DNA from: a virus
Taxonomy: Duplodnaviria; Caudoviricetes
Virus record (IMG/VR): IMGVR_UViG_3300044840_000113
Span: 1 to 37,484 of that record
Strand: one strand, 5' to 3'
DNA length: 37,484 nucleotides
The notes under the pieces were generated by a model. That model ran no database searches. It was not told where the DNA came from and saw only the letters and a list, made by a program, of their open reading frames with translations. A program made the translations under genes and the position numbers. Each line of letters opens with the position of its first letter. Position 1 is the first letter of the stretch. Shown in pieces: positions 1 to 37,484 of the stretch.

Positions 1-1251
1 TCATGTTCCGTCAGCCACGGCGCGCGGGCGGAACAGGCGCTCGTCAAGCACCTGGCGGGCACGGTCGTGCGAGTCCGGCATCATGTGGACGTACATCCGC
101 AAGGTGAACGCTGGGTCGTGGTGCCCCAGGTACTCAGCCAGCTCCTTGATGGACACGCCGGCGGCCAGCAGGACGCTGGCGTAGTGATGGCGCAACTGGT
201 GAAGTCCTTCGCGGCGGGTAGTGACGTAGTGCAAGCGCTTGCGCGCGTCCTTCGTTGGCTTCGGGATGATGCCGGCCTTGGCCAGGGCCGGTTTCCAGCA
301 CGACTCGCTGAACGCCCGCGAGGTCAGGTGTTCGCCGTCGGTCCAGCGGAACAGCAGGTTGTGCGTCCGCGGCTTCCCGTCGGTCTTCTCCCACGGCAGG
401 GAGCACGGCCGGGGCTTGTACTTGGCGATGTGCACCCGGATGCTCTGAGCCGTCCATTCCGGCAGCGGTACATCTCGCTCGCGATCGTTCTTCGGCAGGG
501 CGAAGACGTAGCGCGGGCCCAGCTTCTTGAGCTGCCTTCGGACGTGGACGACCTTCTCGCCGAAGTCGATGTCCTCCAGACTCAAAGCGAACAGCTCGCC
601 CTGCCGTAACCCTGTGGTCGCACCGACTTGGGGGAGAAGCCGTAACGAGTCCGGGTGCGCGTCGATCAACGGCAGTACCTCGACGTCGCTCCAGGCCTGG
701 ATGCGTTCCCCACCGGCCGCCTGGATGCGCTGTACGACTGGCGACAGACCTGGGTTCTTCTTGATCAAGTCGTCGGCAACAGCCAGATCGAGCACGCCGA
801 CCAACACCAGGCGCGCGGTCGACACGGTCGACGGCCCGTGTTTGTCGCCGAGTTGAGCCTGCCAGGACTGCACCTCCGAAGGTTTGACCGCCTTCACCGG
901 ACGGCGTCCGAACGTCGGTTCCACGTGCAGCCGATATACAGACTGATATCTGATCAGGGTGGATGGATCGACCTGCCGGGACGACAGCCAGCGCGCAGCG
1001 ATGCCGTCGAACCGCGCTTGTCCGGCCTTCGGGTCGTAGTACTCGCCGCGGTCCCGGTCGGTCTCCATCTTCGCCCAGTACTTGTCCGCCGGCGCCTTGG
1101 TAGCGAACGCCTTCGTGCGCTCCTGGCCGTCCGGGTCGAGCCAGCAGGCCAACCAGCGTTTGCCCTTACCATGTCGGTTATTCGGTACGCGCTTGACCTT
1201 GCCGTCTGACTGGTTCTCGGGGCGCGTCCAAAGGTCTTTTGTGTAGCCCAC
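1..1251 (-). CDS. int: Tyrosine recombinase / phage integrase
   Basis: TGLRQGEL (catalytic R), HQLRH (HxxR) and LGH...TLRMYVH (H, Y) motifs; N-terminal arm-binding region. The GTG start overlaps the upstream TAG (TAGTG). Confidence 0.96.
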   Translation of the reverse strand: MGYTKDLWTRPENQSDGKVKRVPNNRHGKGKRWLACWLDPDGQERTKAFATKAPADKYWAKMETDRDRGEYYDPKAGQARFDGIAARWLSSRQVDPSTLIRYQSVYRLHVEPTFGRRPVKAVKPSEVQSWQAQLGDKHGPSTVSTARLVLVGVLDLAVADDLIKKNPGLSPVVQRIQAAGGERIQAWSDVEVLPLIDAHPDSLRLLPQVGATTGLRQGELFALSLEDIDFGEKVVHVRRQLKKLGPRYVFALPKNDRERDVPLPEWTAQSIRVHIAKYKPRPCSLPWEKTDGKPRTHNLLFRWTDGEHLTSRAFSESCWKPALAKAGIIPKPTKDARKRLHYVTTRREGLHQLRHHYASVLLAAGVSIKELAEYLGHHDPAFTLRMYVHMMPDSHDRARQVLDERLFRPRAVADGT

Positions 1252-1940
1252 TAAGGTATTCCGATCTCCGCGAGGCGTCGTTTTATCATTTGGACTTGAT
1301 GATCCCCCTCTTCTGCTTGCGCGCGCGCGGCCTCGTACAGTTGCACGTATCGTACTGCCCGTTCCTGTGCGTTCTTGTAGTTCTCACCACCTTCGCCTTC
1401 CGTTGCTGCCACGGCTGCCACGCGCTGATGGCTTTTTGTCAACTGGGAGGAGAGGTGGTCAAGTTCAGCGTGTGCGCGCGCTGTGCACGCCTCGGCCTCG
1501 TCTAGCTCAGACCGAAGTCGCGCTTGTTCTTCCTCCCGTCTCACTGCTTCTTCGAGTTTGTCAACCCGCATGTGAGCATGAGAGAGTCTTTCGTGCGCTT
1601 CGTGCGCAGCACTTTCACTGCGCATTAACGTGTCGCGAGCATGGCGGAGCTGTACGTTTAGTGGAATATCTGGCCGCAGCATGTCGTGGAGGTCAGATTC
1701 AAGTGCCTTGGCAATAGCAACGGCTTCGCCAAGGCGAACCCGTCGAGCGTTGGGCGAGTTTTGATCATCCCATTTTTCGATTCGCAAGATGGCGAGGTCG
1801 TCGATCTTCACTCCCGCTGCGGTCAGCTTCTCGGCGAGAGCAGCCTGCGACAGTCCCAGTTCGGACCGCAACTCGCGCAGCCGTTTGGCGAATAGCCGCT
1901 CTACCTGCTCAACGGGTGACGTTGGTTGGCGTTGGTCCAC
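1251..1940 (-). CDS. XRE-family HTH repressor with C-terminal coiled coil
   Basis: LRELRSELGLSQAALAEKL HTH_3-like motif and an E/A/R-rich helical C-terminus; divergent from a xis-like gene and upstream of int. Confidence 0.85.
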   Translation of the reverse strand: MDQRQPTSPVEQVERLFAKRLRELRSELGLSQAALAEKLTAAGVKIDDLAILRIEKWDDQNSPNARRVRLGEAVAIAKALESDLHDMLRPDIPLNVQLRHARDTLMRSESAAHEAHERLSHAHMRVDKLEEAVRREEEQARLRSELDEAEACTARAHAELDHLSSQLTKSHQRVAAVAATEGEGGENYKNAQERAVRYVQLYEAARAQAEEGDHQVQMIKRRLAEIGIP

Positions 1941-1985
1941 GTCTCGTAGGTGTACTCGCCCGGACCCTTCAGGTCAAGAAGGCAT

Positions 1986-2078
1986 GCCTACTGGACTAGA
2001 AGTAGGCGAGCGGTTATGGTTGCGCCCACCAACCGAGCTTCTGCCTTGTCAGCAGAGCCTACTCGAATAGAAGGTAGG
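1986..2078. promoter_or_regulatory. Divergent switch region with two operator-like repeats and a rightward promoter
   Basis: GCCTACT-N8-AGTAGGC at 1986-2007 and a near copy GCCTACTcGAaTAGAAGgtagg at 2057-2078. TGGACT (1992-1997), 17-bp spacer, TATGGT (2015-2020). Confidence 0.65.
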
Positions 2079-2079
2079 T

Positions 2080-2316
2080 ATGGGTCAGGCCGGATATGTC
2101 CAGGTGGGGACCACTGATGACTACTTCACCACTCGTGACCTGTCGCTCAAGTACCGCACGCCTGAGTCGACGGTGCGGTACTGGCGAATGATCAACTACG
2201 GCCCCCGTGGCACCAAGGTCGGACGCCGCGTGCTTTACGCGCGTGCCGAGGTCGAGCGGTTTGATGCCGAACTCGCCGCGCAGGCGGCCGAGAAGTCCGC
2301 CGACGGTGCGGCATGA
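2080..2316 (+). CDS. Excisionase/AlpA-like winged-HTH DNA-binding protein
   Basis: YFTTRDLS...PESTVRYWR...GPRGTKVGRRVLYARAEVERF, a typical HTH_17/AlpA pattern; first gene divergent from the repressor. Confidence 0.85.
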   Translation: MGQAGYVQVGTTDDYFTTRDLSLKYRTPESTVRYWRMINYGPRGTKVGRRVLYARAEVERFDAELAAQAAEKSADGAA

Positions 2317-2717
2317 AGCGCAAAGGAGGGGTCGGCCGGCCACTTGGCGGCGCCCGGACCGACCCCAGCGGACAGCCAGCAGAGAACCGGGCATCCAACC
2401 AGGAGGGTACGACACCCGATCCGGGTGTGCCCAGCGTCACGGTTCGGGCAGTGTTCAGCAAGACCATCGATGGCGTGAGTCTGGTCGTCGACCGCGAGCG
2501 CGGGTTGGCTCGGGTCGATGTCGGCGCCCACAAGAGCTACGACCTGGTCGGCTTGGTGCGAAAGATCGCGGACGCCATCGTCGGCTGCTCCGACGTGGAA
2601 CTGACCGGCGACGACCGCCGCGCCCTGGACTTCCTGCGCGAGAAGTTGCCCGGGGAGATCCGACTGGCCGAAGGCTGGGTGGCAAGCGGGCTCGACAACC
2701 GGCCGGGTGCTGCGTGA
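2313..2717 (+). CDS. Hypothetical protein
   Basis: ATGA overlap with the previous gene and GTGA overlap with the next; high-GC3 codons in the 3' part. Confidence 0.65.
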   Translation: MKRKGGVGRPLGGARTDPSGQPAENRASNQEGTTPDPGVPSVTVRAVFSKTIDGVSLVVDRERGLARVDVGAHKSYDLVGLVRKIADAIVGCSDVELTGDDRRALDFLREKLPGEIRLAEGWVASGLDNRPGAA

Positions 2718-3187
2718 CCCACCGGGCCGGACCACCTCCAGTCTCGGCCTACACCCGCAAGCTGCTGGACGAGGCGATCGAGGTCGACCGGCGGTTGGTC
2801 GTCGAGACAGGCTACGACCTCCTCGACATCCGGTCGGAGATCGCTGCCATGCCGTCCGACGAGGTCGAGGAGGTCGTGATCGACGGCTTCCGCTGGCGGT
2901 ACTACTGGCGGCCAGAGAACGTGCTGTGGCGGCAGGAAACTGAGGCCAGGGAACGCGCCCGAGTCGCGATCGAGATCAGCCACGATCTGGCCGGCGCGAT
3001 GCGCTGGTCGGGGATCGGTCCAACGCACGCGCAGTTGGCGAAGCTGCGGGCCACACCGGCCTGGGTCCGGTCGTGCCCCTGGGCTGGCTGTCGCTGGACG
3101 GCCACTGTGTACGACCCGACGGTGACGGCGGTGTCGTGCCCGCAACATCGTGCCCGTGACGTGAGCGAGATGAGGCAGGCTTCGTGA
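2714..3187 (+). CDS. Hypothetical protein with C-terminal Cys/His zinc-finger-like motif
   Basis: GTG at 2714 is in frame with the 2207..3187 ORF and overlaps the previous stop. CPWAGC...CPQH motif; GTGA overlap with the helicase gene. Confidence 0.7.
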   Translation: MTHRAGPPPVSAYTRKLLDEAIEVDRRLVVETGYDLLDIRSEIAAMPSDEVEEVVIDGFRWRYYWRPENVLWRQETEARERARVAIEISHDLAGAMRWSGIGPTHAQLAKLRATPAWVRSCPWAGCRWTATVYDPTVTAVSCPQHRARDVSEMRQAS

Positions 3188-4638
3188 CGACAGCTCCTGA
3201 CATGTCCGGGTCGGCGACGGTGCACCACCTCGCCGGTCCTCGACGTGCCGGCGCGCCAGCACCCGCGCCGGAAGCCGTGGATTACGACGAAGTCCACACC
3301 GGACAGCTCCGGATCGCCGAGCGGTTCGCCCGCAGGTTCACCGGTGAGCTGATCTACGTGCATCGGATCGGCTGGCACATTTGGTGTGGCACGCACTGGA
3401 TCGCTGACGACAAGGGCCTCAGTAAGTTGCGAGTGAAGGAGCTGACGGCCGAGATCTGGGCAGAGATCGGCCGGATGGACACCGGGCCGGACCGCAAGGA
3501 GCTGATGGCCGACGTCAAGAAGTGCGAGTCGAGCGCCGGTATGACCGGCGTGCTGGAGATCGCTAAGTCACTGCCGCCGTTGGCCACCAGCCTGACCCAG
3601 ACAAATGCCGACCCGCATCTGTTCAACGCCCGCAACGGCACCCTGGACTTGCGGAACGGGACGCTGCGACCGCACGACCCGGCAGACCTGATCACGAAGG
3701 TCGCCGGCGCCGACCTCGACCCGGCTGCCCGGTCGGATCGTTGGGACACGTTTCTGGAAGAGGTGCTGCCGGACGAGGAGGTCCGCGGGTTCCTGCAACG
3801 GGTATTCGGGCAGGCGATGCTCGGGTCGGTGGAGGAGCACGTCCTACCGATCATGTGCGGGGCGGGCCGGAACGGGAAGGGCGTCGCCTATGAGGCCGTG
3901 CTGCGGGCCTTCGGAGACTACGGCAGGGTCGTGGACCCGAAGATCATCATGCAGAACAAGAACACCCTGCACGGCACCTTCTACGCGGACCTGTTCGGGA
4001 TGCGGTTGGTGGTCACGTCGGAGACCAACGAAGGTGGCAAGCTCGACGCGGCCGTCGTCAAGCGGCTGACTGGCGGCGACCGGATCAGCGCGAACCGGAT
4101 GCACGAGAACAGCTTCGAGTTCACGCCCAGCCACAGCATCGTGCTGATCACCAACCATCGACCCTCAACCGACGCGGGCGACTCGGCGTTGTGGGCACGC
4201 CTACGCGTGGTCCCGTTTGACGTGGTCGTCAAGCGGATCGATACGAAGCTCCCGGACAAGATCCGGGAGGAATTGGACGCCGTACTCGCCTGGGTGTTCC
4301 AAGGCTGGCTGGACTACCAGGAGCAGGGCTTGGCCGCCCCGGACGCGGTCATCGAGCGCACCGAGGAGTACCGCAACGAAGGCGACTCGCTGGGCGAATT
4401 CCTGACCGAGGAATGCGTCAAAGGTCAGTTCGCCCGCGTCCTGTGCATCGATCTGTACCGGGCATGGCAAGCCTGGTCCATGCACAACGGCGTGCCGGCG
4501 ATGGCGAAGGTGGCCTTCGGTCGGCTGATGACCGTCCGCGGCTTCGAGCGCGGGAAGTCCGGCGGCAACGCCGTCTACATCGGACTCGGCCTTCGAGCCG
4601 AGGAAGAAACTACAGGTCAGAGCATGTTCGGGGGCTGA
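3184..4638 (+). CDS. Phage/plasmid primase P4-family protein (D5_N + SF3 helicase + winged helix), no catalytic primase domain evident
   Basis: NARNGTLDL (D5_N), Walker A GAGRNGKG, KRLTGGD, LITNHRP and WARLRVVPF motifs. From memory it closely resembles M. tuberculosis phiRv1 Rv1582c. Confidence 0.92.
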   Translation: MTTAPDMSGSATVHHLAGPRRAGAPAPAPEAVDYDEVHTGQLRIAERFARRFTGELIYVHRIGWHIWCGTHWIADDKGLSKLRVKELTAEIWAEIGRMDTGPDRKELMADVKKCESSAGMTGVLEIAKSLPPLATSLTQTNADPHLFNARNGTLDLRNGTLRPHDPADLITKVAGADLDPAARSDRWDTFLEEVLPDEEVRGFLQRVFGQAMLGSVEEHVLPIMCGAGRNGKGVAYEAVLRAFGDYGRVVDPKIIMQNKNTLHGTFYADLFGMRLVVTSETNEGGKLDAAVVKRLTGGDRISANRMHENSFEFTPSHSIVLITNHRPSTDAGDSALWARLRVVPFDVVVKRIDTKLPDKIREELDAVLAWVFQGWLDYQEQGLAAPDAVIERTEEYRNEGDSLGEFLTEECVKGQFARVLCIDLYRAWQAWSMHNGVPAMAKVAFGRLMTVRGFERGKSGGNAVYIGLGLRAEEETTGQSMFGG

Positions 4639-4639
4639 A

Positions 4640-4726
4640 TGGGGAGAATTGGGGAGTGTTTTTCTAAAACCTCCCCACATACACACGTGAAGAGAGTTTC
4701 AGCCAAACACTCCCCAATTCTCCCCA
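4640..4726. repeat. Perfect 22-bp inverted repeat with GGGGAG iterons; candidate replication origin
   Basis: TGGGGAGAATTGGGGAGTGTTT (4640-4661) and AAACACTCCCCAATTCTCCCCA (4705-4726) flank a 43-bp AT-richer spacer, directly after the helicase stop. Confidence 0.8.
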
Positions 4727-4764
4727 GCCCGGCCTTCACCCCACCTGATCAGGAGATATCTCGC

Positions 4765-5121
4765 ATGAACTACGACCCCGGCTACAAGATCGAACGCAAC
4801 ACCCTTCAGATCATGGCCGCGCCACCCGGATTCGTCGCCGTCTACACGCAAGGAGAAGGCGACGAGGGAGACCGTGAGTTTGAGATGCCGGTCCTGGCAT
4901 GGCTGGTCCAGGAGGTAATCCACGAGTACCCCTCCTACCCCGACCGAGGCAGCTCCCGCGAGTGTGTCGACACCCAGGTCGTCGCAGCCGTGCTGGACGA
5001 AGAGTCCGGCACCCTCACGTCGGTGAGCGACATGGCCAGCGCAACCAAGACCGCGTTCGTCCGTGTCCGGCCGGCACAAGGACACCACGACCCGAAGACC
5101 GGTATGGCGGTGGACTGGTGA
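4765..5121 (+). CDS. Hypothetical protein
   Basis: AGGAG RBS at 4751-4755 before ATG 4765; GTGA overlap with the next gene. Confidence 0.75.
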   Translation: MNYDPGYKIERNTLQIMAAPPGFVAVYTQGEGDEGDREFEMPVLAWLVQEVIHEYPSYPDRGSSRECVDTQVVAAVLDEESGTLTSVSDMASATKTAFVRVRPAQGHHDPKTGMAVDW

Positions 5122-5444
5122 AGGACGTGACAGGTCTTATCCAGGAAGCGGACATCGCGGTCGTTCGCGAGCGGGTCCGGGTGGACGAGGTCATCGGCGA
5201 CTACGTGTCGCTGCGCCGTGCCGATGACAGCGCGCTGAAGGGCCTCTGTCCGTTCCACGACGAGAAGACCCCATCGTTCAACGTCCGCCCCAGCCATGGC
5301 ACCTTCCACTGCTCCGGCTGCGGTGAGGGCGGCGACGTCATCGCGTTCGTGATGAAGATCGAACAACTCGGTTTCGCCGAGGCCGTCGAGCGGCTCGCCG
5401 ACCGGGCCGGCATCGAACTGCACCGGGAAGCGATGGACCGGTGA
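5118..5444 (+). CDS. Stand-alone CHC2 zinc-finger (DnaG primase zinc-binding domain)
   Basis: LKGLCPFHDEKTPSFNVRPSHGTFHCSGCGEGGDVIAFVMKIE motif; 108 aa from GTG 5118; stops where the DnaG ZBD ends. Confidence 0.92.
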   Translation: MKDVTGLIQEADIAVVRERVRVDEVIGDYVSLRRADDSALKGLCPFHDEKTPSFNVRPSHGTFHCSGCGEGGDVIAFVMKIEQLGFAEAVERLADRAGIELHREAMDR

Positions 5445-6079
5445 ACCACGTCACCTTCATCGGCGGCCCGCTCGACGGAACCGTCACCCACCGCCAGCGA
5501 TTCCCGGTCTGCCTGGCCGAGGACGGCACCACCCCGCTTCCCGCGAACACCTACCGCCGCCGAAATGACCTGTACGTGCACCAGGTCCGCGTGCCCGGCG
5601 ACGGCACCAAGCGGCACGCCTATGTCCACGCAAGTCTTCCCTCGACACCGGAGGCAACCCATGAGCACCAGCCCCGCCACCACCGACGACACCCTGTCCG
5701 ATGTGCCGTTCGTGGAGCGGACTTTCGAGATGGTTCGCGACCATTACTACCGGAAGTTCCCACTGTTGCGGGCCTACGACGAGCTGACCCGCAAGCACAA
5801 CAGCGGCCAGCGGTCGATCAACGAGCCGTGGGACGGCGGCCTGTCCAGCTACCAGATCACCCGACTCGCCTTGATCGAGATCGGGAAGCCGCCACGCGAC
5901 CTCGACGACATCCGCATGGCCGAGCAGTACGTTCGGGAACTCCAGCGCGAGGTCAGCGAGATGTACCCAGCACCGGCGCCCGACCTGGCCGACGCGATCA
6001 TCTCGGCCGAGTACCAGTGGGCTGGCTGCGTGACCCGCGCCGAGCATTTCGCCGCGATGGACGAGGCGGACAAGCGTGA
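5441..6079 (+). CDS. Small phage protein (FIGGPLDG motif); probably only the first ~75 aa are meaningful
   Basis: GTGA overlap start and phage-typical N-terminus. The ORF runs on, out of frame, over the next gene. Confidence 0.45.
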   Translation: MNHVTFIGGPLDGTVTHRQRFPVCLAEDGTTPLPANTYRRRNDLYVHQVRVPGDGTKRHAYVHASLPSTPEATHEHQPRHHRRHPVRCAVRGADFRDGSRPLLPEVPTVAGLRRADPQAQQRPAVDQRAVGRRPVQLPDHPTRLDRDREAATRPRRHPHGRAVRSGTPARGQRDVPSTGARPGRRDHLGRVPVGWLRDPRRAFRRDGRGGQA

Positions 6080-6245
6080 CCACGTCGACGGCCTCTTGGA
6101 CGAACTGATGCACCGTGGCGCGGTCGAGGACCACGTCCGCGAACTGCTGATGATCGCGTTGCCCGAGATCTACGCCCGGATCACCGCCCACAGCGAGGCG
6201 TTGCGTAACCGGGCCCAGCTCACGTCGGTCCAGGGCGGCGAGTGA
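5661..6245 (+). CDS. Hypothetical protein
   Basis: GGAGG RBS before ATG 5661; high GC3; TGATG overlap with the next gene. Confidence 0.75.
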   Translation: MSTSPATTDDTLSDVPFVERTFEMVRDHYYRKFPLLRAYDELTRKHNSGQRSINEPWDGGLSSYQITRLALIEIGKPPRDLDDIRMAEQYVRELQREVSEMYPAPAPDLADAIISAEYQWAGCVTRAEHFAAMDEADKRDHVDGLLDELMHRGAVEDHVRELLMIALPEIYARITAHSEALRNRAQLTSVQGGE

Positions 6246-6682
6246 TGAGCGAGCCGACCTGCCTCCCGGTGACCGAGCAGTTCACCAGCCTGATCGCTCA
6301 GGCCGTCGCCAACTTGTCGCTCTCGGCGGTCGCCATCGAGGCCGAGATACCCGACGCCGAGGACGCCGCGAAGGGTCAGGTCGCCGGCCGGGTCTTCGGG
6401 GAGGTCCGGGCGCTGCTCGACCAGTTCGATGGCGAGATGTTCCCGCCGCAGCTCACCGCGGATTACCTCGATGGGGACGGTAGCGAGTGTGTGTCCTACT
6501 GGGACGAGGCGACGGACGACGACCTATTGCGCATCGCCGCGCACGCCATCGTGTCGGCTGCCCTGTTGCGCCAGGAGTGCGACAGTCGGATCAGGACCGC
6601 CGTTACCGCACTGGCCCTGCACGACGCGAGCACCCAGCCTAACGGCGAGTTCGAGAAGGCCTCGGCCGAGGCCGTGTCATGA
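6245..6682 (+). CDS. Hypothetical acidic protein
   Basis: Coupled start and stop overlaps on both sides; high GC3. Confidence 0.7.
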   Translation: MSEPTCLPVTEQFTSLIAQAVANLSLSAVAIEAEIPDAEDAAKGQVAGRVFGEVRALLDQFDGEMFPPQLTADYLDGDGSECVSYWDEATDDDLLRIAAHAIVSAALLRQECDSRIRTAVTALALHDASTQPNGEFEKASAEAVS

Positions 6683-7320
6683 CCACCCGTCAGGCGATGG
6701 CCGACTTGGTCGCCGCTGCGCACGACTTGCTCGACCCCATCACTCGGCGGGTGCTTCGCGATGGCGGCACAACGACGACGCACACCGCGCCGAGCCTTTT
6801 GCACCAGTTGCGGGCTGCAGGAGGCACCAGCGGTGAAGGCGGCGGAGGGGGTCGTGGTTCACGCAACCCGATCCCGATCGACCCAGCCGCTGTCGACCTG
6901 CTGACTGAGATCACCACCGGCGCCATCGACCTGCACGATCGGGCACTGGAGCACAGCCGGCCCACCATCGAGGACCACGTCTGGGCCGTCGTGGCCCTCG
7001 CGGAACGCTGGGAGGATGATCCGGCCGCGATCGAGTGGGCCACCGGCTGGCTCCGGCACTGGCGGAAGTCCATCGAGGACACGCTTGACCCGCCGCGGCG
7101 CTACCACCTCGACGCACCCTGTCCGGCGTGCGGGTCACGCATGGCCACCCGGATGGACAACGACGAGACCGTCCAGGTGCCGGCGCTGCTGCTGGACAGT
7201 CGCCTCGGCGCAACCTGCCAGGTCGAGGCGTGCGGTGCGCACTGGACGCCTGACCAGTTCGAGCACCTAGCGCGGGTCATTCGCGAGCAGGCCGGGGCGT
7301 CGTTGGCCGAGACTGGCTGA
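6679..7320 (+). CDS. Phage protein with C-terminal zinc ribbon; possible late-gene regulator
   Basis: CPACG...CQVEACG motif; last gene of the early operon. In my recollection, similar proteins usually precede terminase genes in actinobacterial prophages. Confidence 0.7.
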   Translation: MTTRQAMADLVAAAHDLLDPITRRVLRDGGTTTTHTAPSLLHQLRAAGGTSGEGGGGGRGSRNPIPIDPAAVDLLTEITTGAIDLHDRALEHSRPTIEDHVWAVVALAERWEDDPAAIEWATGWLRHWRKSIEDTLDPPRRYHLDAPCPACGSRMATRMDNDETVQVPALLLDSRLGATCQVEACGAHWTPDQFEHLARVIREQAGASLAETG

Positions 7321-7419: not shown

Positions 7420-8214
7420 TCACGCGTCCAGCATGATCGTCCTCATCTTGCTGATGGCGTCATCCTCGTCGTCCACATCCACAGGGTGGGAAACCTGTTC
7501 GATTGGCAAAAGAACTTGGTCGATGTCTTGGTCACCAAGGATGGACGTGGCGTAGAAGGCGACGAAGCTCTTGGCGGAACCAGCCAGCCTTGCCGCATCC
7601 ATCCGAGTCCTTAGCTCACGGGCGTCCGCTCCGGCTCGCTCACCCATGCGGGAGTGAACGAGATCCATGAGGTGCGGCTGTCCATTGCTGTATGCGAATC
7701 GGAACGACACCTTAGTCAGGGGTCCCGTGTCGGTGTACCGAGCAGGGACCTCGACCTGGCGTTCAGGGGCAACGCCGGCAGCCGTGAGGACCCGCTCAAC
7801 GCTCTCCAGCAGGTGCCCGACACGCGTTTCATGAGGCACCGAGGCCTCTGGGCGTTCCGCTTCGACAACCTCGTGGTACAGACGATCCAGGACCGGCTCC
7901 CAAGGGGGGCGCTCGTCGAGTAGATAGCCACCGAGCAGAGCCGTGTAGTTGCCTGTCCGCTGTTCCTGCATCTGCTCGACACTGGCCCAGTCATCAGCCG
8001 CGGCCTTGCGCCGGAAGTAGTCGACCCAGGTCTTGTACGCCTCGGTGCTGACGTGGACGTGCCGCAGTTTCCTGCCGCTGATCTCGCCGTCGTCTCCCTC
8101 GCCGAGGAACCTTGTCAGCCACCCCTCGGGCGTCTTGAGCAGCACACCGAGGTTACGGGGCTCACGCCGCCGGAGATCCGACATATGCTGCACGAGGTAC
8201 CAGGTCGCCTTCAC
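7420..8214 (-). CDS. DUF3037-like partner of HipA-family kinase
   Basis: N-terminal WYLVQHMSDLRRREPRNLGVLL matches the DUF3037 pattern, and C-terminal FRFAYSNG is typical of these partners; GTGA-coupled to the kinase. Confidence 0.7.
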   Translation of the reverse strand: MKATWYLVQHMSDLRRREPRNLGVLLKTPEGWLTRFLGEGDDGEISGRKLRHVHVSTEAYKTWVDYFRRKAAADDWASVEQMQEQRTGNYTALLGGYLLDERPPWEPVLDRLYHEVVEAERPEASVPHETRVGHLLESVERVLTAAGVAPERQVEVPARYTDTGPLTKVSFRFAYSNGQPHLMDLVHSRMGERAGADARELRTRMDAARLAGSAKSFVAFYATSILGDQDIDQVLLPIEQVSHPVDVDDEDDAISKMRTIMLDA

Positions 8215-8966
8215 TCGTCCTCGCCCTCCTCGTTAGACAGGCCGCCCTCAGCTTGCGCCTTGTCCGGCGGCAATGACAGGGCCGTCAGTTTGTGTATGGC
8301 ACTTTGCCGGTGCACGATGAAATCGAGGAGTTCGGTCGCGAGCGCCGATGAGTAGAGGCCGCGGCGGGCACCTTCGACTGTGATCCTTCGGAGAGCAGAC
8401 CGCGGGACGTTCCGGACCCGTTGGCCCCATGCGTGTAGCCGCTCGGCATCCAGGGGGCAGTTCCGAAAGATGTGCCGATCAACCGGTGCGTCTTTGCACT
8501 GGTCCAGGGCGCCTGGGATGCCAGTCCTACGAAGGCCGAGTGCTTGATCGTGGTCGATAACCCACAGTCCGAGTTTCCGGTGTGAGATGACGTTGTGTTC
8601 GTGTCGGTCCACGTTGAGTATCCAGACGTCGAAGACCAGGACACCTGCCGCTAGATCTGGTTCACGAACAGCGAGAACGGCGGGGTCTTCAGGGGCCGGC
8701 GTCTCGTTGTCGATCCCCACGACGGCCGTGACCCACTGCACCTGCTCGGTGTAGTCACGCCCCAGTTCGCCGGGTGGCACCGGGAGTCCGATGGTGGCGG
8801 CGAGCCGGGCGCAGACGAACTCGTTGGCCACCAGCCAGGGATGGTCTTTCGTGTTGGGTTTGATGTAGACCCGCGCGGTGCCCCAGCAACCCTTGTTGGC
8901 TCCCTCTGTTCCAGGGGCGCCGTATGTCGTGACCGTGATCCCGGGGACGAGGCGTGGTCGGCGCAC
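8211..8966 (-). CDS. HipA-like (HipA_2 / PI3-4K superfamily) Ser/Thr kinase
   Basis: YIKP...ANEFVCARLA..IGLPVP (K/E pair), FDVWILNVDRHEHN (catalytic loop) and VIDH (Mg-binding). Confidence 0.88.
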   Translation of the reverse strand: MRRPRLVPGITVTTYGAPGTEGANKGCWGTARVYIKPNTKDHPWLVANEFVCARLAATIGLPVPPGELGRDYTEQVQWVTAVVGIDNETPAPEDPAVLAVREPDLAAGVLVFDVWILNVDRHEHNVISHRKLGLWVIDHDQALGLRRTGIPGALDQCKDAPVDRHIFRNCPLDAERLHAWGQRVRNVPRSALRRITVEGARRGLYSSALATELLDFIVHRQSAIHKLTALSLPPDKAQAEGGLSNEEGEDE

Positions 8967-9125
8967 GGGCTCCCCTTCGTTGGGCTGTGTTGATCGTCGC
9001 CCGACAGAACATCACAGGGCCGATCCCGCCTCACTTCATCGCTACCGAACTCACCCGATCGGGCTATAGCCTCATCCCCACGGTGAGGCGTCGACCTATC
9101 GGTCGGCCAGCGCATCACAGTCCGA

Positions 9126-9968
9126 TCAGCCGCCAGCCGACCTCACGTCAGCGGCGATCCGGGCCAGAAGAGCACGGGCCCGGTCTCCTTCGAGCGCGAC
9201 TGACCACAGTCGGTCGGTGATCAACCGATACAGCGCGACGTCTTCCGGGTCGGTGACCGGCACGTCGGTGTGGTTGACCTCGACGACGACCTCGTTGTCC
9301 AGCATCAGGTGGCCGTGCAGCGCCACCACCGGCAGCCGCTCGTCCAGCGGGATCACGCCGAGGCGCACGGTCGGCAGGCCGGTCAGGTTGGCGATGCGGT
9401 CGAGCTGGCCGACCATGACGGACCGTGCCGCGATCGGGTAGCGCAGCGCAGACTCGCCGACCAGGATCTCCACGGTCTTGGCCGGGTCGTACAGCACCTC
9501 CTGCCGGCGCATCCGCGCCAGCACCGCGGCGTCCAGGTCCGGCGGCGAGCTGTGCATCTCGGCCGCCACCGCGAACAGCGCGCGGGCGTACTCGGCGGTC
9601 TGGACCAAGCCTGGTACGACGAAGAACTCGACTTGGACCAGGTGTGTGGCCGTCCGTTCCCGATCGCCGAGTTCCACCTGGGCAGGCGTATGTCCGGACC
9701 GCAGCCGACGGCGCCAACTGGCACGGGCCAACCGCAGATCCCGCAACCGGTCGCGCATCTCAGCCAGCGTCGCGTCCGGCGCCTGGATGGCCTCCAACCA
9801 GGCGATGACGTCCTCGTCGTCCGGCAGCGTGCGACCGGACTCGATCCGGCTCACCTTCGAGGGCTGCCAGCCGAGCGCGGTCGCGAACTGCTTCCCGGTC
9901 TCGTAACCGGCCCGGATGCGCAGCCGGCGCAGAGCGTCGCCGAACGCCAGCTGCTGCTTCTCGATCAC
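9126..9968 (-). CDS. XRE HTH + DUF5753 transcriptional regulator
   Basis: LRRLRIRAG...WQPSKVSRIESG HTH; VPGLVQTAEYARA, RMRRQEVL and ESALR DUF5753 motifs; GTG start at 9968. Confidence 0.92.
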   Translation of the reverse strand: MIEKQQLAFGDALRRLRIRAGYETGKQFATALGWQPSKVSRIESGRTLPDDEDVIAWLEAIQAPDATLAEMRDRLRDLRLARASWRRRLRSGHTPAQVELGDRERTATHLVQVEFFVVPGLVQTAEYARALFAVAAEMHSSPPDLDAAVLARMRRQEVLYDPAKTVEILVGESALRYPIAARSVMVGQLDRIANLTGLPTVRLGVIPLDERLPVVALHGHLMLDNEVVVEVNHTDVPVTDPEDVALYRLITDRLWSVALEGDRARALLARIAADVRSAGG

Positions 9969-9979
9969 GCGCCCCGGTC

Positions 9980-10492
9980 CTACGTCAGGTGGAGTTCCCG
10001 ATGTTGGACGGCATGGTGCCACACCAGGTCGCGCCACCGGCGATGCTGCGCCACCACGTCCGGCTGCGTCGTCACCTTGACGTCGACCAGGGTGTATTCG
10101 GCGTCGAACCGCATGATCGCGACGCGTTCGTCGTCCACCAGGTAGTAGTCGTACTCGGGCAGCCCAAGGTCACGGGCCACGGACTCATGGACCCAGCGGA
10201 TGTCCTCGCCAGCGTCGATGTTGGCGTCGGTGGTGGTCATCAGCCAGATCAGGTACTCGGTGGCCGGTTCGGTGATCATGCGTACGCGCTGGAACGGGAT
10301 GGCGCGCCGACGCAGGCCGCGGATGTAGTCGTGCCAGGCGATCGTCTCGGTGTCCAGCTCGGACGGCAGGCCAGCGCGCCAGCGGGCCAGCTCTGCCTCG
10401 TCCACCTCGTAATGGCCCTGGCACTCCCAGCGCCACACGCTGCGGGTGACGCTGGCGAACAGGGCGGAGAGCTGGTCGACGGGAAGGGTCAC
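9980..10492 (-). CDS. DUF6879-family protein
   Basis: SVWRWECQGHY, RVRMITEPATEY, NIDAGEDIRW and DYYLVDDERVAIMRF motifs; canonical position upstream of an XRE-DUF5753 gene. Confidence 0.85.
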   Translation of the reverse strand: MTLPVDQLSALFASVTRSVWRWECQGHYEVDEAELARWRAGLPSELDTETIAWHDYIRGLRRRAIPFQRVRMITEPATEYLIWLMTTTDANIDAGEDIRWVHESVARDLGLPEYDYYLVDDERVAIMRFDAEYTLVDVKVTTQPDVVAQHRRWRDLVWHHAVQHRELHLT

Positions 10493-10698
10493 GCCGTGTT
10501 GCCGGGCAGGTACGCCAGCAGGCCGGCAGGGATCTCGACGGCGGTCTCATGGTCCGGCAACCCGCGCTGACGCAGCTCGGCGAGCGCCTCGGGATCGGTG
10601 ACGATCGAGCCCTGCACCACGTAGGTGCCGCGGTCGGTGGCGAACGCGGTCGGGCAGCCGCCGTTCTTGCTGGTCGTGCCGAGGAAAGTCAGCTTCAT
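10489..10698 (-). CDS. Small conserved actinobacterial protein of the XRE/DUF6879 cassette
   Basis: GGAGG RBS; MKLTFLGTTSKNGGCPTAFATDRGTYVVQG...ETAVEIP; GTGA overlap with the DUF6879 gene. Confidence 0.85.
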   Translation of the reverse strand: MKLTFLGTTSKNGGCPTAFATDRGTYVVQGSIVTDPEALAELRQRGLPDHETAVEIPAGLLAYLPGNTA

Positions 10699-11015
10699 GT
10701 CATCCTCCAGTGGAGTCGGGTTGCTGTCACAGAATCGGTGCAATCCGTAGCGCTGGTCAACGGTGCTAGCTCGTCCAAACGAGTGAACCAGCTCCATGAT
10801 TCTATAGATTGCACAAATATCATGACTATCCTGCCTGGGTTGAGACGCTGACGGACAGGGGGCGGAAGTGGTCGCGTATGCGCCCGACGTCCAGTCGGCG
10901 ACACCGTGCCCGGCACCGGCGAGCGTCCAGCCGCCGGGCAAGTTCGTCGCCGACACCGAGACCGCCGATGACGCCGCGTCATGCCAAGACCAACGACCGA
11001 TCGGAAGCGTGACCC

Positions 11016-34281: not shown

Positions 34282-34539
34282 ATGACTCCCGAGATGCGGG
34301 TGCTGCGGTCAAGGCTCGCCTCCCACACCCGCTGGGCCAAGTGCGAGGACCGCACTGCGGCCACCCAACCCGCGCGGGACGCCTTCCGGAACCGCTGGCT
34401 CGACCAGGTCGACCCCGACCGTGTCCTGCCCGCAGCCGAGCGGGCCAAGCGCGCGGACAACGCCATGAAGGCGCACATGACCCGCATGGCCCTCAACTCG
34501 GCCAAGGCCCGCGCCCGGCGGAAGCATCGGCCGGCATGA
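34282..34539 (+). CDS. Conserved basic protein of actinobacterial integrative elements
   Basis: R.RLASH.RWA..EDRTAAT.PAR.AF...VDPD..L...ERA.RA pattern. Confidence 0.8.
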   Translation: MTPEMRVLRSRLASHTRWAKCEDRTAATQPARDAFRNRWLDQVDPDRVLPAAERAKRADNAMKAHMTRMALNSAKARARRKHRPA

Positions 34540-34823
34540 TCATGGCGGCTCATAGTGAGGCGCGCCAACCGGCATCGGAGCGGACCAAAGCCGTCGACCT
34601 GGCCATGGCCAGTGCAGTAGATGCCGCCGCTCCGTCGCTCCGTCGGCGTGCCTGGTCACCGGCCGAGGTCGCTGGCCAGCTCGGCATCAAGTACAAGTCC
34701 GCGCTGGGTCTGATCCGTTCCGGCGAACTGGGTGCCCTGAAGGTCGGCCAGCACTACATCGTCCCGGATGTCGCGCTGGAGCGCTACCTACGCTCCGCGC
34801 TGCCTGACCAGGTGGCGTCGTGA
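34536..34823 (+). CDS. Excisionase-like HTH_17 DNA-binding protein
   Basis: WSPAEVA.QLGI......LIRSGELGALKVG.HYIVP...LERYL; ATGA overlap. Confidence 0.85.
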   Translation: MIMAAHSEARQPASERTKAVDLAMASAVDAAAPSLRRRAWSPAEVAGQLGIKYKSALGLIRSGELGALKVGQHYIVPDVALERYLRSALPDQVAS

Positions 34824-34996
34824 CCCTGACCCCAGAGCAACGATCCATCCGCAACGCACTCCACGAGTTCGACCGCACGCGCGGCAAGAGCGGCCTGCGC
34901 GGATCGCAGCGCGCCGCGAACTGCACCTGGCGCATCCACGTCGATGACTTGGACGCGTGGGTGCGCGGCGAGAAGCCGGCCCGGCGGGCGTCGTGA
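34820..34996 (+). CDS. 58-aa truncated paralogue of the next gene (wing part of a xis-like domain); absent from the ORF track
   Basis: VTLTPEQRSIRNALHEFDRTRGKSGLRGSQRAANCTWRIHVDDLDAWVRGEKPARRAS; GTGA overlaps at both ends. Confidence 0.72.
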   Translation: MTLTPEQRSIRNALHEFDRTRGKSGLRGSQRAANCTWRIHVDDLDAWVRGEKPARRAS

Positions 34997-35436
34997 CCGT
35001 CGAGGAGTCCCTGGCGCCCAGCGACGAGACGATCGCGTTCCTGCGGCGCCTGTTCGGGCTCGACAAGCACCCATTCAACTTGGACCTGCGCGACCTGGAG
35101 CGAGGACTCCATAGCAACCCAATTCCAGAGCGTGCCGAAGGCATACCCACCTCTGAGTCGAAGGCCGAGCAGTCGCACACGGAAGGCATATCGGCGCCAC
35201 CACCGGTGCAGCCGGCCACGCCGTGGATGACCGTGCAGCAGGTAGCCACTTATTCCGGTCACCACCCGGACTTCATCTACGACGTCCTGCACGAGTTTGA
35301 AGCCACCCGAGGGCGTAGTGGCCTTCGGGGCTTCCAGCGGACCGTCAAGGCCAAGTGGTGTATCCACCGTGACGACGTGGACGCTTGGATCCGCGGTGAG
35401 CGGCCTCCACGATGTCGCCCGACGGCTGGATCGTGA
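34993..35436 (+). CDS. Protein with C-terminal excisionase-like HTH
   Basis: PWMTVQQVATYSG.HP..IY..L...W.IHRDDVDAWI motif; GTG 34993 overlaps the previous stop. Confidence 0.8.
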   Translation: MTVEESLAPSDETIAFLRRLFGLDKHPFNLDLRDLERGLHSNPIPERAEGIPTSESKAEQSHTEGISAPPPVQPATPWMTVQQVATYSGHHPDFIYDVLHEFEATRGRSGLRGFQRTVKAKWCIHRDDVDAWIRGERPPRCRPTAGS

Positions 35437-35603
35437 CCCCCGAGGAGCGCGAGGCCCGACGGGTCCGGATCCGCCAGATGATCTCGACCTGGCCTGAGGC
35501 CACACCCGAGCAGATCAAGGCGATCAACGCCGTCCTGTGGGTCAACCACCCGAACAACCGGGCGACGTGGCCGGTTCGGGGCCAGCCGGGGCGTAGGTCC
35601 TGA
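35433..35603 (+). CDS. Small hypothetical protein
   Basis: GTGA overlap; WPEATPEQI..I.AVL is typical of small actinomycete mobile-element proteins. Confidence 0.6.
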   Translation: MTPEEREARRVRIRQMISTWPEATPEQIKAINAVLWVNHPNNRATWPVRGQPGRRS

Positions 35604-35658
35604 GCGACCCCGGCTGCATAGGTCTGTGGTGAGCAGCCCCGCAGCGCCTGTGACGACG

Positions 35659-35749
35659 GGTGTCCTGGTACCGAAGTACCGGGGCACCTCCATGCCTCGA
35701 CCTGCCAAGCCACGACTCGCCTTGTCTCGCTGTGCCGTGCCTTGTCGTC
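35659..35749 (-). ncRNA. Candidate small RNA: eleven 5-nt (GGC-NN-like) units followed by a UUCG hairpin
   Basis: Minus strand GAC-AA GGC-AC GGC-AC AGC-GA GAC-AA GGC-GA GTC-GT GGC-TT GGC-AG GTC-GA GGC-AT, then GGTGCCCCGGTAC-TTCG-GTACCAGGACACC. TATGCT -10 box at 35758-35753. Confidence 0.55.
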
Positions 35750-35759
35750 CTGAGCATAC

Positions 35760-35966
35760 CTAGCCAGCTTCCGGCCGTTCAGGCAACTCCGCACCGTCCT
35801 CGCCGACGTACCAAGCCGTGAGGTCGTTGACGACCTTCGCTCGGTCGGAGCCGGCCTGCTTCGACTTCTTGTCGAGGGCTTCCCATCGCTCATCCGACAT
35901 GCGGATACTCCGGTTCGGATCGCGCCCGGTGGCAGGACGGCCGATCTTGCGCTTCGCCTGGCTCAC
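35760..35966 (-). CDS. Ribbon-helix-helix DNA-binding protein
   Basis: GRPATGRDPNRSIRMSDERWEAL...RAKVVNDLTAWY. TATGCT -10 (35978-35973) 6 nt before GTG 35966 suggests a leaderless start; ATG 35987 is an alternative. Confidence 0.82.
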   Translation of the reverse strand: MSQAKRKIGRPATGRDPNRSIRMSDERWEALDKKSKQAGSDRAKVVNDLTAWYVGEDGAELPERPEAG

Positions 35967-35994
35967 GCGACGAGCATAGCGAAACATACGGCAG

Positions 35995-36051
35995 TACCAA
36001 AAGTCCTAGCTGCTCATGGCCGCCACGTGCTACTTTTGGCCCTACCAAAAG
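35995..36051. promoter_or_regulatory. CCAAAAG operator-like repeats in the divergent promoter region
   Basis: TACCAAAAG at 35995-36003 and 36043-36051; inverted CTTTTGG at 36033-36039 overlapping a TACTTT -10-like box. Confidence 0.6.
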
Positions 36052-36054
36052 GAC

Positions 36055-36091
36055 GGCCCCCGGTGGTGTTGCGAGCACCGGTCCGGGGGCC
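36055..36091 (+). other. Leader stem-loop
   Basis: GGCCCCCGG / CCGGGGGCC outer stem with GGTGTT-GCG-AGCACC inner stem, upstream of the 36118 RBS. Confidence 0.5.
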
Positions 36092-36117
36092 TTGATCAGA
36101 CGCGAGAGGTCTGACCC

Positions 36118-36456
36118 ATGAGAAAGACTCCCAACACCCCAAAGTGGTTGCTCCAGCGGGGCGCCGTGACCCACCGCGCCATCGCTGCCGTCGCTGTGCT
36201 GGCCGGCTGGATCGCCGCAGTGGCCGCCGCTGCTGCCCTAGACCTGGACGTGATCGCCGTGCTGGTCGCTGCCGGCGCCGTGCTGGTCTCCATCGCGACC
36301 ACCAACGCCCTGCTAGAGATCCGCAGCCGCGAGTGCGAGAGACACGTCGAGGCCCGCTTCGCGCAGATGAAGGCGGAGGACGCTGCCCTGGCCGCCGTGA
36401 TCGACCCGACCCTGACCGACGTGGCCCGCTCGACCTGCCTGCGGGACAACCGGTGA
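36118..36456 (+). CDS. Membrane protein (2 TM)
   Basis: GAGAGG RBS; two Ala/Val-rich helices. Confidence 0.75.
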   Translation: MRKTPNTPKWLLQRGAVTHRAIAAVAVLAGWIAAVAAAAALDLDVIAVLVAAGAVLVSIATTNALLEIRSRECERHVEARFAQMKAEDAALAAVIDPTLTDVARSTCLRDNR

Positions 36457-37484
36457 GCGCCGACCGCCCGTTCGCCGACCTGACCCTGACCCCTGCGCAG
36501 GCCGATGGCTTGGCGTGCGTGGTCTGCGGCGCCGACTACCTGACCGCTAAGGTCGCCCACCGGCCGGTTGGCCGGTCGCACACCGGTTCGCAGGTGTTCG
36601 CCTGCACCGAGACCTGCCTCGACGCATTCGAAGGTTTGCCGACTGCTGCCGCTGGGGACGCCTCGACGATGACGACGATCATGGAACGGAGTCGTTCGGA
36701 CGACCACACCGATCAGGTTCTCAGCCAGATGGCGATAGAGGCAACTCAAGATCGTCCCTACTGGCAGACCGAACCGTGCCCGCCGTGGTGTTGGCGCGAA
36801 CACAAGGACAGCGATCCACCGCCGGACCGCACTCACTTCAGCGAGTGGGATGGCGAGGTGGTCATGAGCCTGGTCGACTGGACCGACGACGTCTTAAACC
36901 CAGGCGGGAGAACCCCGAAATACCTAGGACCGCCGATCTTGCAACTCCATCTCGCGCAGGGCTGGCGCGAATCTGAACCGCACGTGGTCGTCGGGCCGGA
37001 GATTGGGCATCGGCGCTGGAACGTCGCGCTGGCCGAGGCACACCACCTGGCCGAAGTACTGGTCAAGGCCGCTGACCTGGGGGACGGGCGGATCCCAGTC
37101 CCGAGCGGGTCCGCGGTGAGCCGGAAGGCCCGCCGCAGCAAGCCTCCACGCCCGTTCTGGTTGACTGCCCCATGTCCGTCGTGGTGCACCAGCGATCACG
37201 ACTGCGAAGGCAGCGTTGACGACCGCGTCCACTTCGGCGACTGGTACGTCGACGTGCCGCTGACCCTGATCGACGTGCCGTTCGAGGAGCAGGGCGACGA
37301 CATCCATGGGCAACAGCCACAGACAGCGCGGGTGCACATGGAGCAGCACGTCGGGGAGATCGAGGCGCACGTCTGGCTCGGCCGGGGCGGTTCGCGGGAA
37401 GGCTGGAACCTCACCCTGGCCGAGGCGCGACAGGTGGCCGCCGATCTGACTACGGCTATCGCCCTGGCTCGGAGCGACGACTGA
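36453..37484 (+). CDS. Cys4 N-terminal domain + two tandem CPxWC-H (DUF6907-like) domains
   Basis: GTGA overlap; ACVVCG...FAC...C, then PCPPWCWREH..DRTH and PCPSWCTSDH..DRVH repeats, each ending WN..LAEA..A..L. Confidence 0.78.
   Translation: MSADRPFADLTLTPAQADGLACVVCGADYLTAKVAHRPVGRSHTGSQVFACTETCLDAFEGLPTAAAGDASTMTTIMERSRSDDHTDQVLSQMAIEATQDRPYWQTEPCPPWCWREHKDSDPPPDRTHFSEWDGEVVMSLVDWTDDVLNPGGRTPKYLGPPILQLHLAQGWRESEPHVVVGPEIGHRRWNVALAEAHHLAEVLVKAADLGDGRIPVPSGSAVSRKARRSKPPRPFWLTAPCPSWCTSDHDCEGSVDDRVHFGDWYVDVPLTLIDVPFEEQGDDIHGQQPQTARVHMEQHVGEIEAHVWLGRGGSREGWNLTLAEARQVAADLTTAIALARSDD

Follow-up and report, generated by a model that had tools for sequence, protein, structure and literature searches.

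The DNA analysed here, called the window throughout, is the whole of an IMG/VR provirus record, 37,484 bases long, with a GC content of 67.5% and an estimated completeness of 86%. Its left end carries genes for an integrase, a repressor, an excisionase and a primase, followed by morons; then comes a structural cluster on the minus strand, with the terminases at its end, and a module of small genes lies at the right. This layout (1-7320, 12881-34082 and 34282-37484) is unusual, since the early module is convergent on the structural cluster and a second module, rich in excisionases (34282-37484), comes after the terminases. The record may be a prophage joined to satellite-like elements, and the module at 34282-37484 is either part of the prophage or an adjoining satellite-like element; none of the 20 repeat families listed for the window is an att-like exact repeat. 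The moron block (7420-10956) holds a HipA-like kinase with its partner as well as an Xre-DUF5753/DUF6879 pair, which is also present near the RHH gene in another locus (L001), and a tRNA-Arg call by ARAGORN at 8493-8587, on the opposite strand within the HipA-like gene, is probably false. The nearest relatives of the terminase, at less than 60%, are in Micromonospora and Streptomyces phages, and plasmid and atlas searches for the host genus returned Actinomycetota only.

The unit under study lies in the small-gene module, between an Arc-like RHH gene on the minus strand and a convergent 63-aa gene on the plus strand, directly after the stop codon of the former (Table 1). It is composed of 11 tandem units, each a fixed triplet followed by a variable dinucleotide (NN). 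Six of the 11 triplets are GGC and the remainder are GAC (twice), GTC (twice) and AGC; the dinucleotides are of seven different kinds, and 15 of their 22 bases are A or T. An earlier note on this DNA had listed these pentamers, together with a TATGCT box ahead of them and a stem with a cUUCGg loop behind, and the letters bear it out on each point: the pentamers read exactly as listed, the box is followed by a 6-nt spacer, and the stem (35688-35659) has two mismatches on this strand.

Table 1. Coordinates of the pentamer unit, its accompanying signals and the neighbouring genes.
Feature	Position	Strand	Description
Pentamer guide (candidate)	35746-35692	-	11 G-x-C/NN units, read from sequence
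Guide units 1-9	35702..35746	-	18/18 vs codon positions 1-2 of nine consecutive rpoB codons, KTTDKDVFS
Guide units 10-11	35692..35701	-	One mismatch each to the commonest rpoB site
TATGCT (TANNNT) -10 box	35753..35758	-	6 nt ahead of unit 1; predicted to be the promoter of the guide RNA
TATGCT -10 box	35973..35978	-	6 nt before the RHH GTG start
3' tail	35659..35691	-	GGA plus 13-position stem, UUCG loop
Arc-like RHH gene	35760..35966	-	68 aa, predicted leaderless GTG; phrog_6506, E 2.9e-7
63-aa gene, no family	35412..35603	+	Last gene of the convergent operon
Convergent operon	34282-35603	+	phrog_2842, two HTH_17 excisionase-like genes

The same note had read the unit as an orphan guide of the VIPR type. 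In the 2026 descriptions VIPR is a weapon that phages turn on other mobile elements; its Vipr protein reads the NN pairs with a skip of one nucleotide (10.64898/2026.04.26.720920). The 11 units of the window fall within the 9-16 of known vrRNAs. A blastn search of phage records found, in mycobacteriophage Donkeykong, a long staggered GGC/NN array ahead of a RAMP-like gene; relatives of the encoded protein occur at 21 viral loci, with arrays at most of those listed, a profile of 14 such proteins matches SUSP1 Vipr (PDB 36PP, E 9.5e-7), and a model of one Vipr relative is predicted to fold like Cas7/Csm3. The less usual triplets of the window are found in these Vipr-linked arrays too, GAC, GTC and AGC making up 30, 27 and 5 of 964 units, and GAC/NN units are also reported in 10.64898/2026.10.21.760802. 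The NN usage of the window guide favours Vipr-linked arrays by 9.5 bits, and its GGY share is 6/11 against 88% in those arrays. Its last NN is AT, the stereotyped end of staggered Vipr-linked guides: AT is the last NN in 15/48 of them, as opposed to 39/356 inner positions (p 4.5e-4); GA as the penultimate NN is not enriched (6/48). The tail resembles the hairpin closing the Vipr-linked array of locus L013, and is unlike both the pseudoknot of SUSP1 and the tail of the loci L168 and L204.

The Donkeykong region (gp48-50, NC_051648.1; L007:2875-4430) holds a complete VIPR locus with a staggered array, its genes being annotated as hypothetical proteins; "gp48" is a CDS called over the array itself. 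Vipr of this type is present in 27 records of Mycobacterium phages and in 5 of Gordonia phages. The strings "Actino" and "Mycobact" are absent from the main text and supplement PDF of 10.64898/2026.04.26.720920, whose tables may differ. L168/L199 (genome G083) and L204 show a second actinobacterial VIPR architecture, with six or seven guides beside a divergent Vipr, each guide being followed by a tail of about 55 nt whose GTTCGA-type loop resembles a tRNA T-arm; no targets of these guides were found in the DNA tested.

The earlier note had seen no RAMP-like gene in the window, and the searches agree: tblastn for vipr gave 0 matches at E<=10, and two Vipr profiles run over all six frames gave a best E of 0.095. 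This absence covers the 37.5-kb record, including 1.7 kb of DNA to the right of the RNA, so that within the record the unit has what defines a solo vrRNA (no Vipr on the contig or within 20 kb) and lacks the adjacent vipr (RAMP) gene of a complete VIPR system. A vipr gene beyond the record, which is an estimated 86% complete, is possible. Judged by its sequence, the unit resembles the published solo vrRNAs and is not a complete VIPR system.

The 5-nt periodicity exceeds that of randomised sequence. The GGY score of 28/33 is the best in the window, the next unrelated place having 23, and was reached in 1/200 order-4 Markov simulations; the G-x-C score of 21/22 was reached in 0/200 (maximum 19). 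The open reading frame at 35542-35757, named earlier as a rival cause of the pattern, is rejected as a gene on its flat codon-position GC (0.63/0.72/0.69) and the lack of a Pfam or PHROG match. Units 1-2 and 7-8 (35746-35708) are complementary (AA-AC / GT-TT), so the free RNA could fold back on itself; such self-folding does not go beyond that of shuffled sequences (z -1.5). Rfam has no match to the unit. A 5-nt period is not diagnostic by itself, since simple pentamer microsatellites abound in Pseudonocardiaceae: G-x-C runs of nine units occur in 151/401 genomes of the family (five unpublished genomes included), and a reversed control is equally frequent. These microsatellites are of low complexity with NN rich in GC, in contrast to the unit described here. 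On Pseudonocardiaceae chromosomes those in GGC-NN phase (GGCTG, GGCTC, GGCAG; L169-L198) are common, and the tracts L169 and L183 are more complex, with many GAC, GTC and GGT triplets; such microsatellites could be decayed guides, Vipr sponges or plain repeats. They swamped a generic search for solo guides in the 401 genomes; 30 loci were examined out of a set with 3972 further matches, so the search has no bearing on whether other solo guides are absent.

The signals around the unit fit an actinobacterial setting. TATGCT occurs three times in the window, counting both strands, and the boxes of the guide and of the RHH gene are two of these; the arrangement before the RHH start resembles leaderless actinobacterial gene starts. 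Scans of the region for sigma-70 promoters and for U-tract terminators gave no match; actinobacterial promoters are reported often to have TANNNT alone (PMC3898074). The hairpin is predicted to fold at -25 kcal/mol on the plus strand (z -4.5) and at -16.3 kcal/mol on the RNA strand (z -1.7), its stem being fully paired on the plus strand thanks to G-U pairs and weaker in the RNA. Because it is perfect on the plus strand, it probably also ends transcription of the convergent operon, and it may be a plain terminator.

The RHH gene is the neighbour whose 3' flank carries the RNA gene, and its single match among 185,579 species genomes is in an Amycolatopsis. No pentamer tract lies beside its relatives in the one Amycolatopsis and 30 Pseudonocardiaceae loci, and none of 49 viral RHH-related loci has an adjoining tract, one having a weak tract 3.7 kb off; the guide is therefore a lineage-specific insert. 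As a vap candidate the RHH gene was compared by neighbourhood alone, and its relatives adjoin neither an array nor vipr. A second lineage carrying the window guide was found neither in same-guide scans nor in the RHH-related loci: the two candidates that the scans produced, an AT-rich metagenome contig and a viral contig of 52% GC, are not guides, and a tail-anchored scan of viral contigs gave three loci, all of them chance or simple repeats. Close by, at 36049-36120, a conserved intergenic hairpin element precedes a divergent gene (best E 1.4e-13); it is common to L001-L003 and many Pseudonocardiaceae genomes and is negative in Rfam.

Further copies of the region come from other runs. A contig from a soil run of another study (X3) spans the whole unit, which excludes an assembly artefact; run X2 gives units 1-3 unchanged, and run X6 reaches the RHH start alone. 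In X3, none of the 22 NN bases is changed, and the four changes in the RNA give the consensus GGC at unit 4, pairing at both stem mismatches and a UCCG (UNCG) loop. Over the stretch of the RHH gene that X3 includes there are seven changes, four of them synonymous. The earlier note had proposed to check homologous loci for triplets that are kept while the NN vary; in X3 all 22 NN are kept and one triplet differs. With a single relative at about 5% divergence the evidence of selection is weak, and the 0/22 NN changes alone are not significant at that divergence. The comparison suggests that the window copy is more worn than that of X3, and the "decaying remnant" that the earlier note had offered as an option may apply to one triplet and two stem positions that are off consensus, but the NN positions are intact.

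In the first a priori search, of three records with up to three mismatches allowed, the 11-unit pattern had one match, in rpoB of an Amycolatopsis (G001). The match is on the coding strand and in codon phase, the wobble bases being those that are skipped, and the whole guide agrees at 20/22 positions (91%, where at least 80% is expected of a vrRNA target). The gapped pattern proposed in the earlier note was the correct one. Among 41 genomes, skips of 0, 2 and 3 nt gave 0/41 each, and the 1-nt skip gave 28. The rpoB site is matched within three mismatches in 128/201 Pseudonocardiaceae genomes (125/198 without the three unpublished ones) at 129 places, about 70 of them at 20/22 by hand count, and is without a match in the other 73; the reversed control gave 0/201. 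It is single-copy in 127/128 matching genomes, the remaining one having two. The 30 of the 129 places that were translated all have the same RpoB motif near codon 190, and in G154 rpoC lies downstream. Across these 30 loci, which had been selected for matching the guide, the positions read by units 1-9 are invariant save for position 2 of unit 8, and the wobble bases vary.

Since the 128 matches are one conserved site and not independent events, their significance rests on controls. The true guide finds one site at 20/22 in 800 kb of G154, with the next best at 16, and none of 700 unit shuffles reached 20/22 (maximum 19, once). Units 1-9 alone score 18/18 against a shuffle maximum of 16, and 316 nine-unit windows taken from natural, Vipr-linked guides score at most 16/18 in the same segment. 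The site is absent in 60/60 other genomes drawn from Actinomycetia. Its confinement to Pseudonocardiaceae and the match of the RHH gene to Amycolatopsis would be two separate pointers to one family, and the host is likely a member of it.

Other DNA offered no better target. The window itself has none, as had been noted by eye (best 15/22). Two exact 8-unit scans of IMG/VR, which would miss sites with mismatches in the middle units, gave 76 and 108 loci; the best score, 20/22, came from four loci of 32-56% GC, with no site at 21-22/22 and none of at least 19 in DNA of at least 60% GC. In the opposite direction, natural Vipr-linked guides had no significant match to this provirus (best 16/18). 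The orphan-guide reading of the earlier note divides: the unit grammar is as in Vipr-linked arrays and there is no vipr in the provirus, but its proposed target, a competing element, gives way to the one high match found in high-GC DNA, the rpoB of the likely host family. We consider it very probable that the unit is a VIPR-type guide aimed at rpoB.

What such a guide would do is a separate question, and we give a probability of about one half to the answer that it is a tripwire, turning incoming Vipr on the host rpoBC. Vipr filaments are reported to silence transcription from either strand (10.64898/2026.04.26.720920), and solo vrRNAs can redirect the Vipr of another element to host DNA (10.64898/2026.10.15.759431). 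In the lysogen, a minus-strand RNA of about 90 nt would be made from the TATGCT box; the Vipr of an incoming phage, of the staggered-array actinobacterial type, would load this resident RNA, and the complex would roadblock rpoB near codon 190 and hence rpoC downstream. Growth would stall, and the Vipr carrier would be penalised or aborted and would fail to establish. Existing RNA polymerase is stable and its depletion is slow, so the likeliest effect would be to keep Vipr elements from lysogenising or co-residing, and not to cut short a fast lytic cycle. The trigger may be rare, since Vipr was found in only 1% of Pseudonocardiaceae genomes (4/401 over two queries, one of the four unpublished). 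Both rpoB mismatches are in tail-proximal units, and the stereotyped end explains the last unit alone. In the cryo-EM work on SUSP1 the filament assembles 3' to 5' from the tail (10.64898/2026.04.26.720927); if engagement likewise began at the tail here, these mismatches would count against the tripwire, as do the changed G1 and the weaker stem of the window copy relative to X3.

The same mismatches could help an alternative, which we regard as unlikely, namely that the RNA is a decoy or sponge. It would soak up the invader's Vipr and park it on a host site so that the prophage escapes silencing, with rpoB merely a site that is unable to mutate away; tail-proximal mismatches could make the binding too weak to silence, and the rpoB site is codon-constrained. 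There is a precedent in the solo vrRNAs of F5 satellites, with REP targets on the host chromosome, but that decoy works through hundreds to a thousand REP sites, and no protection came from a solo RNA that lacked a target (10.64898/2026.10.15.759431). The rpoB site is not a multicopy, REP-like target, and a decoy in an essential gene would be needlessly costly. Because the published decoy needed many sites, a single-copy essential target suits the tripwire better.

It is distinctly unlikely that the unit is an autoimmune relic, left when a VIPR locus gained a host-matching guide by accident and lost its vipr, the orphan now decaying. Such a history would agree with a record that has no vipr, with structural differences from the X3 relative that are all away from consensus on the RNA strand, and with a hairpin that is intact on the plus strand, where it may have been kept as a terminator. 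Yet the 49 viral and 30 Pseudonocardiaceae RHH loci have no vipr or array at this place, so the unit looks inserted and not left behind; it has a -10 box of its own at unit 1, and its NN are unchanged in X3 while the RHH gene has seven substitutions.

Very unlikely, too, is a takeover or dormancy device, in which the guide would be used together with a vipr outside the record to lower host RNA polymerase deliberately. The protein could come from the missing part of the 86% complete record, from a co-resident prophage or from the chromosome (Vipr-bearing regions exist in Pseudonocardiaceae genomes), and phage CRISPR spacers against the host sigma70 and glycyl-tRNA synthetase have been reported (PMC7162821). 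A Pfam and PHROG scan of 40 ORFs nevertheless found no RNA polymerase or sigma gene, so the phage depends on the host enzyme, and the RNA lies in an accessory spot behind a -10 box of housekeeping type. Lastly, there is little chance that rpoB is matched by coincidence, or that the unit is no guide but a microsatellite-like spacer with a terminator, the real target being an unsampled phage: G-x-C pentamer runs are common in Pseudonocardiaceae, four viral loci also reach 20/22 and the host is inferred, but the shuffle and natural-guide controls, the specificity of the skip rule, the codon phase, the limitation of the target to the family that the RHH match indicates independently, and seven different, largely A/T dinucleotides in place of low-complexity, GC-rich ones all speak against it.

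Among known systems, the closest are the solo vrRNAs of F5 satellites and of VIPR-null members of the SUSP1 family (10.64898/2026.10.15.759431). The window shares with them a GGC/NN guide of about 11 units, a 3' structure, a location on a mobile element with no vipr nearby and a wobble-aligned 1-nt skip, and some of them target the host chromosome and are meant for the Vipr of another element. Their published targets are multicopy REP sequences, vipr, other vrRNAs and satellites, all in Enterobacteriaceae, whereas the window guide points to an essential, single-copy gene of hosts in an actinobacterial family and has as its tail a simple hairpin in place of the SUSP1-type pseudoknot. With the staggered arrays (10.64898/2026.04.26.720920, fig. 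S18; Donkeykong gp49, L013, L167) it has in common triplet degeneracy, NN usage, an AT-ending last unit and a terminal GC-rich UUCG hairpin; those arrays are multi-guide and stand beside vipr and vap, while the window has one guide only, which is preceded by its own -10 box and lacks an accompanying protein. None of their guides scores above 16/18 in the 800-kb host segment, where units 1-9 of the window guide score 18/18. The CRISPR spacers of PMC7162821, directed at genes for transcription and translation in the host, are likewise phage-borne guides against core host genes, sometimes without an effector of their own. They are contiguous spacers in huge phages encoding a replacement sigma factor, whereas the provirus here is of 37 kb, its guide follows the gapped VIPR code, and no gene for a replacement polymerase was found in it. 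No solo guide against rpoB or another essential host gene was found in the published VIPR texts searched, although their data tables may list some. The string "rpoB" does not occur in three main texts and one supplement PDF; "rpoB", "abortive", "toxic" and "Actino" are absent from the main text of 10.64898/2026.10.15.759431.

The sole published counter-measure to VIPR is diversion to repetitive decoys (10.64898/2026.10.15.759431). A different logic would lie behind a solo guide against rpoB: a weapon made lethal to the cell that both parties share, so that carrying Vipr becomes a liability. It is conceivable, though somewhat short of an even chance, that prophages booby-trap their hosts with protein-free "poison" guides, harmless until an incoming Vipr silences the RNA polymerase operon. 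A cheap test is possible, with cultured mycobacteriophages and Gordonia phages as sources of Vipr genes. For Actinobacteria the rpoB match supports the 1-nt-skip code independently, and solo guides could act as host-prediction tags for uncultured proviruses. If the tripwire is real, the unit would be among the smallest defence genes known, acting without a protein of its own: an RNA-only abortive-infection or exclusion system set off by the rival's own weapon, its gapped code fixed on codons that the host is not free to alter, and perhaps one case of a general strategy aimed at essential genes across phyla.
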